From contig JAXDML010000010.1 in the NCBI GenBank assembly GCA_034666125.1, positions 150,037-214,036 on the forward strand: a stretch of 64,000 nt of DNA. Direction: 5' to 3'. This DNA comes from Candidatus Parcubacteria bacterium (GTDB taxonomy: Bacteria; Patescibacteriota; Minisyncoccia; Phycocordibacterales; Phycocordibacteraceae). The translations under genes and the position numbers were made by a program. Shown here piece by piece: positions 12,442-48,315 of this stretch. A model generated the notes under the pieces. It did not search any database, was not told the DNA's origin, and was given only the letters and a program-made list of their open reading frames with translations. How positions within the stretch are numbered: position 1 is the first letter of the stretch; every line of letters starts with the position of its first letter.

Positions 12442-12463
12442 CTATAATAAGGACTGGGATGAC

Positions 12464-12492
12464 AAAACGCTGCAGGAATTCTGCAGCGTTTT
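12464..12492 (+). terminator. Rho-independent terminator after greA
   Basis: AAAACGCTGCAG-gaatt-CTGCAGCGTTTT perfect hairpin followed by a T-run. Confidence 0.7.
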
Positions 12493-12539
12493 GCCCTAAT
12501 CCACAGGGCGATTTCGATCCCCCTGTTAAAATAGGCTTT

Positions 12540-12935
12540 ATGACCAGGAAGAGAGAAAAGAAGCCGGAGCCTACGCTGCACGATATTCTTGCTGCTACCC
12601 AGGCACTCGATGATCGTTTGACCATAGAAATGCACGACGTCCTTAGTGCTATTCAAACGCTCGATAAGCGCCTGACCACAGAAATTGAAGGCGTGGTCGA
12701 GATTATGGGTACCAGGTTCCTCATAGTTGATAAGAAGCTCATAGCAATCCACGATCGAGTGGAGAATCTTAGTGAGCAGTTAAGTGAGGTAAAGAGACGC
12801 GTGGGAACTGTTGAACGCATTATGCTCGAAGTTCAGGATGAGCTGGATGACTCGCTTGCGATAAGGGATAAGGATGCCGAGACGGTTGTTGACCATGAGA
12901 GGCGCATTACTCGACTCGAAACGGCGACGCAATAG
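12540..12935 (+). CDS. Hypothetical coiled-coil protein with an internal tandem repeat
   Basis: Start taken at MTRKREKK. Two tandem ~18-aa repeats (LAATQALDDRLTIEM / LSAIQTLDKRLTTEI). No family assignment. Confidence 0.4.
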   Translation: MTRKREKKPEPTLHDILAATQALDDRLTIEMHDVLSAIQTLDKRLTTEIEGVVEIMGTRFLIVDKKLIAIHDRVENLSEQLSEVKRRVGTVERIMLEVQDELDDSLAIRDKDAETVVDHERRITRLETATQ

Positions 12936-12956: not shown

Positions 12957-14861
12957 ATGTCGACGTTAGAGAATATCCGGCAGGAACGGATAGCGAAACT
13001 GCAGCGCCTCCGGGACAACGGCATGGACCCGTATCCGGCGCGGACCGAGCGGACTCACACGATTACGGACTTCCTTGAAGCGTACGGAGAGCTTGAAAAG
13101 GCTCAGACCAGCGTTACGATCGCGGGCCGCATCATGTCCATCCGCGACCAGGGCGGGGTACTGTTCGCCGACCTGATGGACGGAACGGGGAAGGCGCAGC
13201 TCGTCATCCAGGCCGACACCCTCGGCGAGGAGAAGCTTGAACTCTTCCGTTCATTGGTCGACGGCGGAGACATCATCGAGGCCGCCGGTACCGCGTACAC
13301 GACCAAGCGCGGCATGCAGTCGCTCTCGGTCAGCGGCTGGCGCATGCTCGCAAAGTCGCTGCAACCGGTGCCGGACCAGTGGTACGGCATCAAGGACGAG
13401 GATGAGCGATACCGGAAGCGGTACCTCGACATCCTGCTCTCGCCTGAGATCGCCGACCGCATCCGCCGCCGTTCGCTCTTCTGGAATACCATCCGCTCGT
13501 ACCTGCTTGAGCAGGATTTCGTCGAGGTCGAAACTCCGGCGCTCGAGACGACGACCGGCGGCGCGGATGCGCGCCCGTTCGTCACCCATCATCACGCGCT
13601 CGACATCGACGTGTACCTGCGTATCTCGGCAGGGGAGCTCTGGCAGAAGCGGCTTATGGTCGCGGGGCTGCCGAAGGTCTTCGAGATCGGGCGTATCTTC
13701 CGCAACGAAGGCATGTCCTTCGAGCATCTCCAGGACTACACCCAGCTCGAGTACTATCAGGCGTTCTCGGACTACGAGAAGGGCATGGAGATGATTACCG
13801 ACTTGTACCGCACGATCGCGGACAAGGTGTATGGGACGCGGATATTTACCATAAAGGACTTCACGGTCGACCTCGGCAAGGACTGGGTAATCTACGACTA
13901 CTGCACGCTTATACAGAAGGAGTTCGGCATCGACCCGCTCAAGAAGGATACGGCCGAGGTGGCGAAAGCGCTCACAAGCCGGGCTATACCGTTCGACGAG
14001 GAAGGGTTCAGCATCGAGCGTGGCGTGGACCTACTATGGAAGCAGTTGCGAAAGACCCTCACGGGTCCGGGCTTCCTGGTGCGCGTTCCCGCATACCTCG
14101 AGCCTCTTGCGAAGCGGAGCGCGGATGACGAGCGCGTCGTGGAGCGCTTCCAGGTGCTCATCGCCGGTTCAGAAATGGGGAAGGGATTCAGCGAACTGAA
14201 CGATCCGGTCGACCAGGCCGGACGATTCCAGCACCAGCAGGCGCTCCGGGATGGGGGAGACGAGGAGGCGCAGATGAACGATGCCTCGTACGTAGAAGCG
14301 CTCGAGTACGGCATGCCTCCAGCGTTCGGCTTCGGTCTCTCGGAACGCTTCTTCAGCTTCCTCGAAGGCGTGTCGGCGCGCGAAGCGCAGATATTCCCGC
14401 TTATGCGTCCAAAGACGGAAGATGCCAAGGAACCCAAGACCAAGGAACGGCAGGTCGCCGTCGCGGTCGTGCGTAAAGAAGGACTCGAGCCGTGGCAGGT
14501 GCTCAACACCGTCGCGCATCTCGCAGCCGAGCTCGGCATCCGCGAAGGCCGCACGCTTCTCACCCAGGATGCGCTCACGACCGCGGACGACGAGCGCATA
14601 CCGCTCAACATGCGCCACGCGATCATCCTTAAGGAGACCGGTGACGTAGCGGAACTGCGCAACCTCCTCCGGGGTGCGCAGGCCAATGGGCTCCAGGCCG
14701 GGGCGTTCACGCGCGAGATGATCGAGACGACGAACGATCGAAAGATCATCGAGACGACCGCGAAGATGACGTTCGACGAGGTTGATCTGCTCGGCGTGCT
14801 TGTGTTCGGTCCGGCTTCGGCGGTAGAGCCCATGACTGAAAGTTTCAATAGATACGCATAG
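12957..14861 (+). CDS. lysS: Lysyl-tRNA synthetase (class II) with a ~150-aa C-terminal PTH2/DUF2000-like extension
   Basis: OB-fold N-terminus; class II motifs (FRNEG, GxGxGxDR-like GFGLSERF). The core ends near IFPLMRPK. Beyond it are VAVAVVRKEGLEPWQVLNTVAHLAAELG and ...LLGVLVFGPAS, which resemble peptidyl-tRNA hydrolase 2-type motifs. Confidence 0.88.
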   Translation: MSTLENIRQERIAKLQRLRDNGMDPYPARTERTHTITDFLEAYGELEKAQTSVTIAGRIMSIRDQGGVLFADLMDGTGKAQLVIQADTLGEEKLELFRSLVDGGDIIEAAGTAYTTKRGMQSLSVSGWRMLAKSLQPVPDQWYGIKDEDERYRKRYLDILLSPEIADRIRRRSLFWNTIRSYLLEQDFVEVETPALETTTGGADARPFVTHHHALDIDVYLRISAGELWQKRLMVAGLPKVFEIGRIFRNEGMSFEHLQDYTQLEYYQAFSDYEKGMEMITDLYRTIADKVYGTRIFTIKDFTVDLGKDWVIYDYCTLIQKEFGIDPLKKDTAEVAKALTSRAIPFDEEGFSIERGVDLLWKQLRKTLTGPGFLVRVPAYLEPLAKRSADDERVVERFQVLIAGSEMGKGFSELNDPVDQAGRFQHQQALRDGGDEEAQMNDASYVEALEYGMPPAFGFGLSERFFSFLEGVSAREAQIFPLMRPKTEDAKEPKTKERQVAVAVVRKEGLEPWQVLNTVAHLAAELGIREGRTLLTQDALTTADDERIPLNMRHAIILKETGDVAELRNLLRGAQANGLQAGAFTREMIETTNDRKIIETTAKMTFDEVDLLGVLVFGPASAVEPMTESFNRYA

Positions 14862-36502: not shown

Positions 36503-37305
36503 GGCAGCAGCCGGCAGGCCCGAAGGAGCAGAGGGGCGGAACGACCGTACCGCCCGTACCGACCCCCGAGCACTCGAACACGCCCGAGCATCACGAGGCG
36601 ATGGGGCGGATCCTGTCGCAGACTATCGAGCGCGGGAAGCAGGAAGTGCCGGACAATCCGTCTCCGCTCGTCTGCAAGCCGCGGGAGCTCGAGAGCTGGC
36701 GCGTGTTCAAGATCATGTCCGAGTTTGTCGAGGGGTTCGAGCTCATCAGGAAATATGGGCTCGCGGTGAGCTTCTTCGGCACCGCGCGTGTGGGCTTCGA
36801 GGAGCATTTCTATAAGGAAGCGACCGACCTCGCCGGGAAGCTTGCGAAGGCCGGCTTCGCGGTCATCACGGGCGGGAGCTCCGGCGTCATGGAGGCGGCG
36901 AACAAGGGAGCGTTCGAAGCGGGCGGCGCATCCGTCGGTCTCAACATACGCCTCGACCAGAACCAGGGACTTAACACGTACCTCACCGACTCGTACACCT
37001 TCGAGCACTTCTTCGTACGGAAGGTCATGCTCGCCTTCGCCTCAGAGGTGTACGTCTTCTTCCCGGGTGGATACGGCACCATGGACGAGTTCTTCGAGAT
37101 AGTCACGCTCGTGCAGACGGGGAAAATACGGAAAGTCCCGATCGTCGTCTTCGGCAAGGAATACTGGGAACCGCTCATCGCCTTCATGCAGCTGAAGTTC
37201 CTCGAAGAGCACGCGGCCATCGACGCTCCCGATCTCGAGCTCTTTTTCGTGGCCGATACGGTGGATGAGGCGTATGAATTCATCACGAAGAACGTGCAGT
37301 GCTAG
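36484..37305 (+). CDS. LOG family protein (cytokinin riboside 5'-monophosphate phosphoribohydrolase-like, TIGR00730). The start is probably an internal ATG near 36598.
   Basis: GGSSGVMEAANKGA and PGGYGTMDEF LOG motifs. The ORF as called overlaps the exonuclease 3' end by 19 nt. Confidence 0.75.
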   Translation: MDKDAVGQQPAGPKEQRGGTTVPPVPTPEHSNTPEHHEAMGRILSQTIERGKQEVPDNPSPLVCKPRELESWRVFKIMSEFVEGFELIRKYGLAVSFFGTARVGFEEHFYKEATDLAGKLAKAGFAVITGGSSGVMEAANKGAFEAGGASVGLNIRLDQNQGLNTYLTDSYTFEHFFVRKVMLAFASEVYVFFPGGYGTMDEFFEIVTLVQTGKIRKVPIVVFGKEYWEPLIAFMQLKFLEEHAAIDAPDLELFFVADTVDEAYEFITKNVQC

Positions 37306-37345
37306 TCCGAGAGCAGAGAAAGGGAAGAGGAGAAAGCAGGATAAC

Positions 37346-37372
37346 GCAAAAACGCCCCGAGGGGCGTTTTTG
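37346..37372 (+). terminator. Rho-independent terminator after the LOG gene
   Basis: AAAAACGCCCC-gag-GGGCGTTTTTGC. Confidence 0.7.
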
Positions 37373-37624
37373 CTGATAGCCGGTTGATGTCTCATCCCGA
37401 TCGCGCCGGAGAGGGTTTACCGCATCTCTCCCGAAGGTTCGATGCAGGACCGGACTCCAACACTCGCTTACAAGACCCGGTTCTCAATCGATAGGCTGCT
37501 TTTGGCCGAAGCCTCGAACAGTTATCTACCGACCCTGCCCGAGGCCGAAGCCAAGGGCTAAGTTCGAGTATCGCGCCTGCCGCAAAACCCGGCAACTGTG
37601 GATACTGTTTATAAGGTGGGGACA

Positions 37625-37690
37625 AAAAATATAATAGGGAAAAGCCGTTTCTTCAACGCGGCTTGATATCCCAGGTTTGAAGAAGCGGCT
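37625..37690 (-). terminator. Long hairpin terminator downstream of the minus-strand gene 37692..37922
   Basis: AGCCGTTTCTTCAA...TTGAAGAAGCGGCT: a 13-bp stem with one mismatch. On the minus strand it is followed by TTTTCCCTATTATATTTTTTG. Confidence 0.5.
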
Positions 37691-37691
37691 T

Positions 37692-37922
37692 TCAACTCAG
37701 CCCGGGGATGTGCAGGTCCCCCTCCACGAAGAGCCAGAAAATGAGCCCGGCGACGACGACGATCAGCGATGTCTCGGGCCATGGCAACCCTATCCAATGG
37801 CAGATCAGCGCGATGAGGGCCAGAAGGATTAGTCCCCAGATGGTCGGGCCTAGACTGTTACCCCTCAACATGATGATCAGCGTCCAGATTGCGCACAACG
37901 CAAAGGGCAGGTACTGGGTCAC
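37692..37922 (-). CDS. Small membrane protein (2 TM)
   Basis: 76 aa, hydrophobic. Confidence 0.35.
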   Translation of the reverse strand: MTQYLPFALCAIWTLIIMLRGNSLGPTIWGLILLALIALICHWIGLPWPETSLIVVVAGLIFWLFVEGDLHIPGLS

Positions 37923-38118
37923 GGTGACCTCCTTTCGTTTCAGTACCCTATGACTGTACGACTTACAAAGTAGAGAGTCAATAGAGAAGAGAATCGTATC
38001 AAAAGGAAAAAACTATCACATTCAACAGGGAGGCAAAGAAGACGGATGGCCGTTTTCCTTACAATGGCGACACGTGACCATAGGCATGTCGAGTGGCGGG
38101 GAAAGGCCCGAACCGTAT

Positions 38119-38292
38119 TTATATCTGAGGCGGAGTCTTCTTCTTGCTCTTCACTACGCTGACGATGCCGATAATTACCACTACGAGTCCGAGCAACTGC
38201 GCTCCGGGACTATCATCGATTCCGCCGTATACGAACATGAATGCTCCGAAAGCTATCGCGAGAATGGAACATAGCAACCTTCCTTTATTCAT
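38119..38292 (-). CDS. Small membrane protein (57 aa, 2 TM), not in the supplied ORF track
   Basis: Manual translation: MNKGRLLCSILAIAFGAFMFVYGGIDDSPGAQLLGLVVVIIGIVSVVKSKKKTPPQI. Confidence 0.3.
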   Translation of the reverse strand: MNKGRLLCSILAIAFGAFMFVYGGIDDSPGAQLLGLVVVIIGIVSVVKSKKKTPPQI

Positions 38293-38433
38293 ATAAAGAT
38301 CCTACCAAATGGGGAAATAAAAGAAAAAGGGCCCGGTATTTACTCCGGGACAGGGAAGTATACAAAAGGAAAAGGCCATCTGGGGGGAGACGACCGATTC
38401 CTTTGGTCCTCTCCCGGCTGATGGCCTTGGGCG

Positions 38434-38676
38434 TCAGTCCTCCTTGGTCGACGCCGCCGCTTCGAGCCGCTGCGCCACGTGCTCGATGTAGAGCAGGATG
38501 GCGCAGAGCATGAAGCCCAGTGTGATGACGACGAGCACCGCACCCCCGCCGATCTTGATGAAGCTCTGGTTCGGCGACGCCAGGACGATGGTGGCGAAGA
38601 AGGCGAAGATCAGCGCCATGACGACGTAGGTCGCGCTATCTTTGGCACCCCTGGCAATTCTTTCCGACTTGGACAT
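38434..38676 (-). CDS. Small membrane protein (2 TM)
   Basis: 80 aa, with an N-terminal charged segment then two TM helices. Confidence 0.4.
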   Translation of the reverse strand: MSKSERIARGAKDSATYVVMALIFAFFATIVLASPNQSFIKIGGGAVLVVITLGFMLCAILLYIEHVAQRLEAAASTKED

Positions 38677-38773
38677 CTTTCTCTCCTTGAAACATCAGTG
38701 GATTCATAGGCAGATTGGCACATATAGCCTACTTTTGTCAATCCAGCAGGGAAGTCAGATCTATACTGGAGGG

Positions 38774-38947
38774 ATGGAGAGAAAATGCGATGGGTGCGGA
38801 AATGAGATGCGTAGGATCGGTTCTTTTGCTCGAACAAAACGAGAAGGAGAGCGCTCATTCAAGAGCGACGGCTCGGTGCAATACCAGTGTATCAACGAAG
38901 TTTGCTCTGAGTACGAGAAAGTAGTGACGATTCAGCCGGGGGAGTAA
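38774..38947 (+). CDS. Small zinc-ribbon protein
   Basis: MERKCDGCGNEM...CINEVCSEYEK: two CxxC pairs. It sits at the beginning of the low-GC island. Confidence 0.35.
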   Translation: MERKCDGCGNEMRRIGSFARTKREGERSFKSDGSVQYQCINEVCSEYEKVVTIQPGE

Positions 38948-39517
38948 CCGGGTTGCGCGAAGTGGGGTTAATTCTTTGTTTCTAGAAGAGGGCATAGACT
39001 TGGACGACTCAAAGAAGTCTTGAGGAAAACTTGAGAACCTCTTCTGTAGGGTAGGGGAGTCCCCGGCACTTAGATCGGGGACGTGAGTAACTGCAGATTA
39101 CCGCTATGACGAAGGTAAAAGCGTGGCATTCGGCCAGGGAGACTGACCGTCAGGTATACCACGACAACGATGCGTGCACAGAAGGGAACAACATTGAAGA
39201 GAAGTACCGCCGGGAAGGTACTGACAATCGTCCTCAATGTGACCACTGTAGACGCCTCAGTTAAGGGTTTGTAGCGGAGTCTGCCCGGACGTAGCATCCC
39301 TGATACTTCTTCGGGAGGTCTGGGTGATCGCTCCTCTGGCACTCCCCGTGCAACCAGAACCATCGTCCCGTCTTGTCTTCGTCGGCAGCCGGGACGATGG
39401 TCTTTTGTATTACTGAGAGCTCGTAGTGAAGTCCGTCGTGTATGTAGGTGTCATCCTCTTCGGCCTCCGTCTTAGCCGCGCAGTAGATTTGACCGTTTTT
39501 TCGTATCCGTAGAGCCA

Positions 39518-39541
39518 TAGGGTAGGGAAGTCAGGTATAAT
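39518..39541 (+). promoter_or_regulatory. Island promoter motif copy 1: TAGGGTAGGGAAG-N5-TATAAT, followed by an ORF-free structured region
   Basis: Direct read. Nothing codes for >1 kb downstream. Confidence 0.45.
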
Positions 39542-39762
39542 GGGGGTGTAAGGTCAAGTCGAGCAAAGTTTAGTAAAGTCGAGTTAAGCAGATGAACTAT
39601 GGGCCTCGTGCCCTGCCCTCGCTTGCGAGGAAAAAGAGACCTTAGACCTGGGAACCTAGATCAGTAACATGGCTCCGCGCTCCAAAAGTCCACGCGCGTG
39701 GCAGGGAAGAGTTCGTTTGTCGTTACTGACCTAATCACTCCCAGGTCTAAACTCTATTTAAG

Positions 39763-39844
39763 TACAACGCACAATATCTGGATCAAATATTTCTGTCTTT
39801 TGTCAAGGCTTTGGGGCTCATTATTGAAAAGTGGGGAGACCCTT
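39763..39844 (+). repeat. 82-bp direct repeat, copy A (partner at 42953..43035)
   Basis: ACAACGCACAATATCTGGATCAAATATTTCTGTCTTTTGTCAAGGCTTTGGGGCTCATTATTGAAAAGTGGGGAGACCCTTA. Differs from copy B by 1 substitution and 1 indel. Confidence 0.9.
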
Positions 39845-40109
39845 AGAACGATCTAGGGGAGGCTCGGCAAGAAGAGAAATATGTTGTAGTTTGGACGCGA
39901 AAATCGTCCACAAGTTGTCCACTTAGGGTCGCGCTTGCGTCAAAATAGCCTCGGGTTAGGATACTTGGAGGAGAGTGGTTACCTTCCTTTTCCACTCCTC
40001 TGAAACGGTCAGTCCGGCCTTTTTATCAGACAACTACTAGCTCGCGGGCTCTAAATCCCAGAAAGGGGTTATTTTTCGTCCTTGTGCGTTCAGAACTTTG
40101 AAAACTTGA

Positions 40110-40214
40110 GTATTGAAGTGTGCCCCGACCGGGAATCGAACCCGGATCATTTCCTGAGAGAGGGAACGCCCTTTCGGGTGGAGTTTTCTAGACTCTTGCT
40201 CTATCCATTGAGCT
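40110..40214 (-). tRNA. tRNA-like gene with a ~34-nt insertion between anticodon stem and T-arm (apparent anticodon AGA); possible intron-containing or degenerate tRNA
   Basis: On the minus strand: perfect 7-bp acceptor (GCCCCGA/TCGGGGC), canonical D-arm (GCTC-AATGGATA-GAGC), anticodon stem-loop AGAGT-CTAGAAA-ACTCC, and a perfect T-arm (CCGGG-TTCGATT-CCCGG). A 34-nt segment with two hairpins (CCC-GAAA-GGG and TTCC...GGAA) sits where the 4-5 nt variable loop should be. Confidence 0.45.
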
Positions 40215-40909
40215 ATCGGGGCACGCTTCAGTACTCAAGATGCTTATGAGATGGGCAGTAGGTCGAAACCTTTTCGGCACACTGCCCAGCCCGTAAGGAC
40301 TGGGTAAATCTCTGGCGAGATTTAGGAAAGGGATCGGGTATTACCTGGTCCTTTTTCCGTTATCATTTCGCTCGCGGATGGTAGTGTCGGGGAACTTGTC
40401 GTTCACCCATTCACGGACATACCTTCCGGTCTTGGCGCTGCGATAAGAGTAGGGAATAAGCCTAGTCGTTAGTCGCGTCTAAACACCCGCATTGTCACTG
40501 CGGGGCCACTTTTCTCGGGAGACCGACCTCCGTCGCCTGCCGCTACGTATCGGCGGGGTATAGTGAGAAACGACACTTGTATCCGATACAAATAGAACCC
40601 ATCCCGACATCTGGCGTAGGCGCTCTCCCTTTCGGGTATCACGCCATACTGGCGAGTGGTCTCTTGAAACCTACGCCAGATGTCGAAACAGGTTCTCTGT
40701 TTCGGGAGAGCATATGAGGGGGACCAACCCCTGTTTATGAAAGTACCGCCCAGCGATTGAGCGTAGCTTTAGTATAACCGAACCGCGCCAAGCTCGTCTT
40801 GGGGATAGGGGTCGCTCCGAAACAGTCCGGCTATAAGGCAAGGGCAAATTGAGCGCTCCTTCTTGGTCCAGGTATTGTGCGATACAGCGATATAAACCGA
40901 GAAGGGAAG

Positions 40910-41125
40910 TTAACCTTTCAGTTTCTTCAGAGCGGCCTTCATGATTTTCTTACGTCCTTCACTCGGGCTGATCTCACGTGCCGCTTCGAAAAGGGCTTCT
41001 TTAGAGGCTTTCTTGGTCGCTTCCGCGAGCTTCGCCAGTTGCTTCACCGCGAAGTCAACCTCCCACTTCTGCTTAAAGGCTATAAGGTTGCGGTCTTCTT
41101 TCACTTTCTTTGGGTCGTCGGCCAT
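40910..41125 (-). CDS. Small basic lysine-rich protein (module 1)
   Basis: 71 aa, MADDPKKVKEDRNLIAFKQKW.. Preceded on its strand by the conserved CAGAGTCCGTATTTGGC motif and TATACT immediately before the ATG. Confidence 0.4.
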   Translation of the reverse strand: MADDPKKVKEDRNLIAFKQKWEVDFAVKQLAKLAEATKKASKEALFEAAREISPSEGRKKIMKAALKKLKG

Positions 41126-41142
41126 AAGTATAGAGTTACTAA

Positions 41143-41177
41143 TACCCCTTAACCCTATCAGAGTCCGTATTTGGCGG
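41143..41177. repeat. Island repeat family 2, copy 1 (CTAYCAGAGTCCGTATTTGGC-GGGGAGGG)
   Basis: Direct read. Partner at 44046..44080. Confidence 0.8.
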
Positions 41178-41189
41178 GGGAGGGTAGTC

Positions 41190-41567
41190 CTACTTTCCCT
41201 GAAGCTTCTTGAGCTCTTTAGTGAGCTTTTCTATCTGTTTCAGGAGCTCGTCGATTCGCTTCTGGTTCTTAGAGACGGCGGGACCGTTCGCCTTACACTC
41301 GCCCCCTTTGGTTAGGTAGTAGCCTGCGTTGCAACTGAACTTACAAGTGCTTTTGGCGGTTATGAGAACGGTCGCGTTCTTGGGAGCACTCTTCGTACAG
41401 GCTTTGAGGGCCTTGTTCTCGCAAGATCTGAGCTCGATCTTCTGACTCGCGGTCGGATTCGGTCCGAACGAAGTACGCATCGATGCGCAGCTGGAAGTGT
41501 TAAATGCCGCGTGTGCAGGCACCGACAAAAGAAATACAGCAATTAGCCCTATAAGGGTCTTTTTCAT
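41190..41567 (-). CDS. Secreted Cys-rich protein with C-terminal coiled-coil (paralog of 44659..45027)
   Basis: Signal peptide MKKTLIGLIAVFLLSVPAHAA, 10 Cys, and a C-terminal KRIDELLKQIEKLTKELKKLQGK. Confidence 0.5.
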   Translation of the reverse strand: MKKTLIGLIAVFLLSVPAHAAFNTSSCASMRTSFGPNPTASQKIELRSCENKALKACTKSAPKNATVLITAKSTCKFSCNAGYYLTKGGECKANGPAVSKNQKRIDELLKQIEKLTKELKKLQGK

Positions 41568-41736
41568 AGTGGAAGGTTTAAGTGTCTAAACGGTGCACCG
41601 CCCGAGGGTATCCCGGAAACCTTCCACGGAAACCGGGACCTGAACTCAGCCGGTGCATTGGTGGAAGGTTATATGTGGCCCTCTAGGGTACTGAACCTCA
41701 GTATACAACGGCTCCTTTTGAGGAAACAACGGGTCG

Positions 41737-41760
41737 TGGGGTAGGGGAGGCCTTATACTT
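41737..41760 (+). promoter_or_regulatory. Island promoter motif copy 2: TGGGGTAGGGGAG-N5-TATACT, 5 nt before the ATG at 41766
   Basis: Direct read. Confidence 0.45.
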
Positions 41761-47990: not shown

Positions 47991-48315
47991 GAGGCCTTCA
48001 TTTTACCACCAGGGTGAATCTTGTACAGACGGACCCAATGTCAAGCCTTTAAAAGGCTTGTGAGCTCCTTTCGCTTTGATAGAAACTTTGCTTCTATATT
48101 TCCGTGACTGATTTCAAAACACGTTAGGATCTACTTGACCTAAACTAGGCTGTTTGGCCTGGCGTGGTCTAAAAACGCGACAAACATAGAAAACCCGTCA
48201 TCAGGGCGTTTGTCGCGTTATAGGGGTAAACTCCTATAGGGGCTTCGGCCCTACTGGTGGCGGGTTTTGTGTTTGCCCACCTCCCCGCCCCGTCTTACTT
48301 CCCTAGTAAACGAAC

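Follow-up and report, generated by a model that had tools for sequence, protein, structure and literature searches.

The lysS gene of this Candidatus Parcubacteria bacterium almost certainly encodes a housekeeping class II lysyl-tRNA synthetase (LysRS) that carries a separately folded C-terminal DUF2000 domain on a disordered linker of about 15 residues. It is quite possible, though somewhat short of an even chance, that the tethered domain hydrolyses an unwanted ester at the 3' CCA end of tRNA-Lys, and this predicted activity is weighed below against other roles for the domain.

The features of the gene are listed in Table 1 by their positions in the window, the whole 64,000-nucleotide stretch of DNA that was analysed. 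A reading made from the sequence alone had described a complete class II LysRS core ending at about IFPLMRPK (residues 479-486) and an open reading frame running on for some 150 residues, and the open reading frame list, Pfam and NCBIfam all agree with it. The extension does lie at the nucleotide given as its start, 14410, but this is one base off frame, as codon 485 begins at nucleotide 14409. Both NCBIfam lysS models score past their cut-offs (NF001756, 482.1 bits against 468; TIGR00499, 439.1 bits against 427.6) and span about residues 5-486, stopping at residue 486 with the extension outside; the LysX model NF002821 also matches the core, over the LysRS part only. Pfam analysis of the full 634-residue protein places DUF2000 (PF09391) at residues 502-631 (E=3.9e-17). 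A Pfam scan of residues ~485-634, which the sequence-only reading had put forward as a check, returned DUF2000 for these last 150 residues alone with E=1.9e-18 and 67.1 bits (gathering score 25), over profile positions 3-130 of 133 and thus near full length. Judged by these profile scores, the match is well past chance level. The motifs in which a likeness to PTH2 and DUF2000 proteins had been seen, VAVAVVRKEGLEPWQVLNTVAHLAAELG and GVLVFGPAS, occupy residues 500-527 and 613-621.

Table 1. Features of the lysS-DUF2000 gene and its 3' flank, in window coordinates.
Feature	Position	Strand	Evidence or remark
lysS-DUF2000 gene	12957..14861	+	single unbroken ORF, 634 codons + stop
OB-fold anticodon-binding domain, residues 53-129	13113..13343	+	Pfam PF01336, E=4.5e-12
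Class II catalytic core (tRNA-synt_2, D/K/N type), residues 147-483	13395..14405	+	Pfam PF00152, E=3e-58
Flexible Lys/Glu-rich linker PKTEDAKEPKTKERQ, residues 485-499	14409..14453	+	AF2 pLDDT, dN/dS
DUF2000 domain, Pth2-type fold, residues 499-634	14451..14858	+	
Motif A PWQVLNTVAH, N-terminal half of helix 1	14490..14519	+	alignment A1 invariant columns W29, Q30, N33, H37
Beta-hairpin insert with D544 and N551	14571..14609	+	A1 columns D60, N67; model strands 55-57, 63-65
Motif B FTREMIETTND, after strand 5	14706..14738	+	
GC-rich terminator-like hairpin, directly 3' of the stop codon	14874..14894	.	consensus scan

The fusion recurs in independent assemblies and is therefore no frameshift artefact. 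NCBI holds an identical protein (P0010), named 'lysyl-tRNA synthetase', from a Candidatus Parcubacteria MAG on a 252-kb contig, and the same three Pfam domains are found in 18 further 90%-identity protein clusters (55-84% identical) from independent samples. GTDB was scanned with one genome per species and the motif F[TI][RQT]EM[ILQ][ES]TT; the scan was built on the subfamily alignment A4, the broad alignment A2 being too diverse. A relative was encoded in 97 genomes and 80 loci were kept, in 79 of which the domain lies in frame behind the LysRS core with a gap of -11 to +67 nt between the tblastn matches. The one exceptional locus (L067) has a frameshift within the domain and no gene boundary. 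The homologues most similar to the domain among those that appear to stand alone lie on short contigs and are truncated gene calls, since they begin with the last LysRS residues (MKP... or MRP...). A natural stop at the junction is conceivable, as the LysRS of the closest relative ends in ...IFPLMRPKGE and a stop codon, but the chance that the fusion reflects a missed frameshift, chimeric assembly or read-through of a stop codon between lysS and a separate gene downstream is practically nil, given the in-frame loci and protein clusters, the position of the only break inside the domain, the truncated calls, and the dN/dS values and co-divergence described below, which show a single evolving unit. 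Frameshift and chimera were rejected on these grounds; a frameshift joining two genes was one of two outcomes that the sequence-only reading had named as fatal to its case, and the recurrence excludes it.

An HMMER search with the domain against 1.84 billion representatives gave 107 matches. Among the 43 that are at least 170 aa long, a LysRS core lies N-terminal of the domain in 32 by phmmer and in 5 more by eye, from its C-terminal motif; another long match (P0190) is probably spurious, being a protein of repetitive Ig domains, and no synthetase partner other than LysRS was found in these 43. The phylogenetic distribution of the fusion, the mapping of which had also been suggested, takes in many CPR groups. 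By GTDB record titles the carriers include Paceibacterota, Kaiser-, Doudna-, Nomura-, Taylor- and Zambryski-bacteria, Morani-, Kuenen- and Buchananbacteria, Peribacteria, Gracilibacteria and Minisyncoccia. A few MAGs bear the label of DPANN archaea, and many MAG labels are automatic. Complete CPR genomes with the fusion include OY969413.1 and CP060226.1. Further modules occur in some relatives: P0153 has the order LysRS-DUF2000-AlaXM-like (E=5e-35) and P0180 the order LysRS-B3/4-DUF2000, the AlaXM-like and B3/4 modules being established aminoacyl-tRNA deacylase folds. An extra HD/HDIG-type domain is present in P0131, P0135, P0150 and four GTDB loci, and a search for solved structures found none close to this HD module. 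A second DUF2000 subfamily (QDFSKK...) includes free proteins as well as LysRS fusions with longer linkers.

The AF2 model of residues 485-634 has a pLDDT of 90 and a pTM of 0.81, with the first ~10 residues disordered. Linker pLDDT is about 51 in this model, and in the full-length AF2 model (pTM 0.61) residues 487-495 fall below 50 and the domain is not confidently docked onto the core. The modest pTM and the low pLDDT of these residues point to a flexible tether, not a fixed interface. The best Foldseek match in the PDB is the DUF2000 type structure, Atu0240 of Agrobacterium tumefaciens (2GAX; E=3e-11, TM 0.78/0.86), with which the domain shares both family and fold. Every solved Pth2 comes next (Pth2/Bit1, PF01981; Bit1 1q7s, 2zv3, 1rlk, 1wn2, 3erj and 1xty; E 1e-5 to 1e-4), sharing the alpha/beta fold, and beyond 2GAX and Pth2 nothing in the PDB was better than E~0.8. 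In a viral structure library, all named matches with E<0.001 were Pth2-type hydrolases of jumbo phages and giant viruses. A single-sequence search reached 2GAX at only E=0.2, against E=6e-27 with the DUF2000 family profile, and in hhalign the DUF2000 profile matched one built from five Pth2 sequences in the PDB, with a probability of 93% (E=3e-7). As judged from the fold matches of the model together with the profile alignment, DUF2000 is a distant homologue of Pth2.

Membership of Pth2 proper was rejected, as the PTH2 model PF01981 did not match at E<=1 (only DUF2000 and one chance match were returned) and the catalytic Lys is missing. This Lys of the Pth2 GKGK motif, whose role was reportedly described by Fromant et al. 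in 2003, is K18 in S. solfataricus, a numbering that agrees with the 1xty sequence, and the catalytic Asp of the DAGxT motif is D86. In two hhalign runs the K18 position fell on either a two-residue gap or the invariant Q514, with no Lys conserved nearby. The runs also disagree on the DAGxT Asp, which is aligned with T591 in one and D594 in the other; H521 is aligned with a conserved Pth2 His. Where Pth2 has DAGxT the LysRS-linked domain has REMIETTND and then an inserted helix, and a beta-hairpin takes the place of Pth2 helix 2. Pth2 is moreover a free, basic homodimer (pI 8.8-9.3 in three enzymes), whereas the LysRS-linked domain is tethered to a synthetase and acidic (pI 4.9; 24 homologues have net charges between -7 and 0). 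The description of the extension as PTH2/DUF2000-like therefore stands for DUF2000 and, through Foldseek and hhalign, for the Pth2 fold, but not for the PF01981 family or its catalytic Lys.

Ten residues are invariant in 26 sequences of the LysRS-linked subfamily (W513, Q514, N517, H521, D544, N551, F584, M588, E590 and D594), R586 and T592 are nearly so, and a second alignment is similar. In the model they fall in the N-terminal half of helix 1, in the beta-hairpin, and in the short helix and loop past strand 5; helix 1 and the post-strand-5 loop are the elements that bear the catalytic Lys and Asp in Pth2. Across the wider DUF2000 family, fused and standalone, the consensus likewise reads WQxLNxxAH and FxxEMxxTxxD, with only Asn517 and Gly618 near-universal. 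Relative to other DUF2000 proteins, the CPR-centred LysRS-linked subfamily has D544, N551, R586, E590 and T592 as extra invariant positions, with the hairpin residues D544 and N551 confined to fused members, and it has His where the Atu0240 branch has Phe. Thermus Pth (Pth1) requires Asn9, His19, Asn57, Glu83-Met84, Asn102 and Arg103 (PMC11994314). This set resembles the invariant His, two Asn, Arg-Glu-Met and Asp of the domain in composition only, the folds being unrelated.

Against three relatives, dN/dS was 0.10-0.18 for the domain, 0.08-0.17 for the core and 0.19-0.39 for the linker, the fastest-evolving part, these values being approximate as dS is close to saturation. On such sequence comparisons, purifying selection on the domain is as strong as on the synthetase core. 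Pairwise divergences of core and domain in 19 fused proteins are correlated (Mantel r=0.72; none of 5000 permutations reached this value). The closest unfused relative (L001) has a core that is 84-85% identical, and its DNA can be aligned with the window up to nucleotide 14413 and then from 15249 onwards; what lies between is unrelated sequence with a terminator-like hairpin. In a neighbour-joining tree of 120 cores all the deepest branches are fused, and elsewhere fused and unfused proteins are interspersed. This branching pattern and the co-divergence together fit an old fusion that has been lost repeatedly. The domain is useful but dispensable, since near relatives are without it and losses are scattered in the tree. 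No core position cleanly separates fused from unfused LysRS, and there is therefore no sign of a relaxed synthetic site in need of editing.

The gene occupies the housekeeping lysS locus. The order in the window is greA-lysS-mraZ-rsmH-PBP-Mur ligase, with lysS directly upstream of mraZ and beside the dcw cell-wall cluster. greA lies just upstream in 56 of the 80 related loci, 38 of which have mraZ-rsmH downstream as well, and the greA-lysS-mraZ order is unchanged in L001. A tblastn search for Pth1 gave no match in the window or the 80 related loci, which as locus stretches are uninformative for whole genomes.

Most DUF2000 proteins are not attached to LysRS. The wider family has more than 2500 matches, mostly standalone proteins of ~140 aa from Actinobacteria, Bacteroidota and Proteobacteria (Streptomyces, Kribbella, Dyadobacter, Mucilaginibacter and others) that have no known function and are named only 'DUF2000'. 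In two Bacteroidota the standalone gene directly follows a gene for a MarR-GNAT fusion; in Actinobacteria it adjoins a divergent AraC regulator, a DAO-type oxidoreductase, a Peptidase_M55 and an amino-acid ABC transporter, and on two metagenomic contigs M15 or M20 peptidases. Among the seven standalone neighbourhoods there were no translation genes and none lay beside lysS. These non-translational contexts, although a small sample, therefore call for caution about a tRNA substrate for the whole family. A literature search, with most subscription journals outside its reach, found no mention of DUF2000 or PF09391, and the occurrences of '2GAX' were unrelated; with the same coverage, nothing relevant was found on LysRS with a Pth2-like domain, CPR synthetase fusions or LysRS in Parcubacteria.

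In the proposed mechanism, LysRS would bind tRNA-Lys through its anticodon-binding and catalytic domains, and the tethered DUF2000 domain would reach the acylated CCA end and hydrolyse an unwanted ester there. The substrate might be a non-cognate aminoacyl group transferred by LysRS, making the reaction post-transfer editing. Alternatively, tRNA-Lys might carry an N-blocked or peptidyl group, and its removal would free the tRNA for immediate recharging. E. coli without Pth was reportedly limited by Lys-tRNA-Lys starvation in the work of Heurgue-Hamard in 1996. The chemistry would be unlike that of Pth2, with no Pth2 Lys and with the invariant His, Asn, Asn, Arg-Glu-Met, Glu, Thr and Asp on equivalent elements, and the domain could be acidic because LysRS would supply the affinity for tRNA. 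Ester hydrolysis is proposed because the fold is a hydrolase-only one with conserved polar residues on the elements of the Pth2 active site, and because the domain is paired solely with LysRS and co-fused with two deacylase folds. The flexible tether, the core-like purifying selection and the co-divergence were also counted in favour. On the other side were counted the missing PF01981 match and Lys, the acidic domain, the lack of confident AF2 docking, dispensability, the non-translational standalone contexts and the absence of a separating core position. Known class II LysRS edits only pre-transfer, within the active site, and trans-acting ProXp-ST factors correct the tRNAs that LysRS has mischarged with Ser or Thr (review PMC7373986). 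The wider claim, that DUF2000 proteins form a new class of hydrolases for aminoacyl- or acyl-tRNA esters, on a Pth2 scaffold with another set of catalytic residues, and serve as a LysRS editing or recycling domain in CPR and possibly DPANN, is possible but doubtful.

The acidic surface, with several invariant Asp and Glu, and the loss of the Pth2 catalytic Lys would suit a non-catalytic ligand-binding or regulatory module that tunes LysRS activity or localisation by holding a cationic ligand (lysine, a derivative, a polyamine or Ap4A) or a partner protein. Its dispensability in close relatives and the standalone homologues beside AraC and MarR regulators, as is common for sensors and effectors, are in keeping with such a role, which we consider unlikely though far from negligible. 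With His, Asn, Glu and Asp among them, the ten invariant residues look more like a catalytic or transition-state site than one for mere binding; the fold is known from hydrolases only, and the AlaX, B3/4 and HD hydrolase modules fused alongside it in relatives suggest a reaction at the end of the tRNA. Catalysis might instead be directed at an amino-acid derivative and not at tRNA, supplying or clearing the active site of LysRS in a CPR cell that is auxotrophic and lives by scavenging; candidate substrates would be N-acyl or esterified lysine, a non-cognate aminoacyl-adenylate, or a lactam or lactone editing product. The peptidases (M55, M20, M15), DAO-type oxidoreductases, amino-acid ABC transporter and GNAT acetyltransferases beside standalone genes speak for this, the motifs common to fused and standalone proteins suggest a common chemistry, and the putative acidic pocket would suit a cationic amino acid. 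We nevertheless regard it as rather improbable: the fusion is LysRS-specific and adjoins tRNA deacylase modules, D544 and N551 are specific to the fused subfamily, and the neighbourhood sample comprises only seven loci.

The position of the gene directly upstream of mraZ-rsmH-PBP-Mur ligase brings to mind a transferase that uses Lys-tRNA-Lys, or the protection or hand-over of this tRNA, as with the MprF domain of LysX or the Fem-type peptidoglycan transferases, and LysX, whose model NF002821 matches the core, is a precedent for LysRS fused to a domain that consumes Lys-tRNA. No transferase with this fold is known, however, the same greA-lysS-mraZ synteny occurs in relatives that lack the domain, and there is no membrane segment, which makes this explanation very improbable. 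A fairly low chance is left to some explanation other than ester hydrolysis, ligand binding, small-molecule hydrolysis, transfer or artefact.

Ester hydrolysis on tRNA-Lys would place the domain among the cis-editing domains and free trans-editing factors of aminoacyl-tRNA synthetases, such as AlaX, the B3/4 domain of PheRS-beta, YbaK/ProXp (including ProXp-ST) and DTD, which are likewise synthetase-linked modules with hydrolase folds. AlaXM-like or B3/4 modules even share a polypeptide with LysRS-DUF2000 in relatives, but the folds of AlaX, B3/4, YbaK/ProXp and DTD are unrelated to that of DUF2000. We know of no LysRS editing domain that has been described, nor of any LysRS with a post-transfer editing domain. 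LysX, the mycobacterial MprF-LysRS fusion, also joins a class II LysRS to a second domain linked to Lys-tRNA-Lys; its extra domain is an N-terminal, membrane-bound transferase, whereas that of LysRS-DUF2000 is C-terminal, soluble and of hydrolase fold. The LysRS-DUF2000 architecture is already in public databases, annotated merely as lysine--tRNA ligase. A hydrolase-fold domain appended to a synthetase is a known type, and is new for LysRS and for this fold.

The presence of the domain on LysRS across many CPR lineages makes it a testable candidate for a new quality-control step in minimal genomes, because LysRS is without a known post-transfer editing domain, free factors deal with its mischarged products where the route is known, and tRNA-Lys is the species whose trapping in peptidyl-tRNA holds back growth in the absence of working Pth. 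Should the domain turn out to have no catalytic activity, it would represent a novel type of appendage on a bacterial synthetase. For DUF2000, an orphan of structural genomics, the LysRS fusion offers a first clue to function. If DUF2000 is indeed a new class of ester hydrolase, the domain would be the first one known to be dedicated to post-transfer editing by LysRS or to tRNA-Lys recycling, and a family of over 2500 orphan proteins, with a structure available since 2006, would gain a function.

The fusion of a bacterial-type class II LysRS to DUF2000 is also present in metagenome-assembled genomes labelled Nanoarchaeota, Woesearchaeota or Methanosarcinales (loci L018, L039, L050, L059, L081 and L084, and also L065 and L076). 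The greA and mraZ neighbours are absent from these archaeal-labelled loci, and at L039 a PF04013 RNA methyltransferase gene adjoins the fusion gene. These could be real DPANN genes gained by transfer, or they could lie on CPR contigs that have been mis-binned.

Several LysRS-DUF2000 relatives carry further modules within the same polypeptide (database proteins P0153, P0180, P0131, P0135 and P0150; loci L040, L045, L065 and L082). Depending on the protein, the module is an editing domain that resembles AlaXM, a B3/4 domain of the PheRS type or an HD/HDIG hydrolase domain (about 200 aa). In-frame TGA codons occur inside the fusion gene at Peribacteria and Gracilibacteria loci (L070, L085 and L088), as expected if UGA is a sense codon in these organisms. 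At L067, from Kuenenbacteria, there is a +1/-1 frameshift beyond strand 1 of DUF2000; here the gene is a pseudogene or else the assembly is in error.

Closer to the gene under study, the coiled-coil-like ORF upstream of lysS can be aligned with L001, the closest unfused relative locus, over a stretch of only ~100 nt, and the equivalent spot in L001 is occupied by a gene of 189 aa on the opposite strand. Elsewhere in the window, about 4.4 kb (~37300-41760) has no ORF of at least 150 aa on either strand and contains only short ORFs and an odd tRNA-like gene, which is absent from the ARAGORN output. Its variable region has a 31-nt insertion that folds as two additional hairpins, its anticodon loop is CUAGAAA, giving the anticodon AGA when read canonically, and CCA is not encoded. 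A match to the LOOT RNA motif also lies in the window, and its coordinates are listed with those of the other features.

Coordinates of additional features in the window and at loci with standalone DUF2000
Feature	Location	Strand	Remarks
Coiled-coil-like ORF, 158 aa	Window 12459-12935	+	greA/lysS interval; no family assignment
tRNA-like gene	Window 40121-40222	-	Rfam tRNA, 56.7 bits
LOOT RNA motif match (Rfam RF03000)	Window 48137-48252	+	70.2 bits vs gathering score 46.4
MarR-GNAT/standalone DUF2000 pairs	L011 3039-4414; L094 2031-3411		Dyadobacter and Mucilaginibacter

Standalone DUF2000 genes have neighbours of their own. In Streptomyces, Kribbella and Aeromicrobium (L007-L010, L095 and L096) they are adjoined by genes for an AraC-family regulator, divergent from DUF2000 in two of the three genera, and a DAO-type FAD oxidoreductase; in Kribbella, genes for Peptidase_M55 and for an ABC transporter of amino acids also lie close by. 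In Dyadobacter and Mucilaginibacter, DUF2000 lies 8-16 nt downstream of a gene encoding a MarR-GNAT acetyltransferase fusion, an arrangement that looks like an operon. Pth detoxifies GNAT toxins whose target for acetylation is aminoacyl-tRNA, and for this reason the pairing of GNAT with DUF2000 may be of interest.
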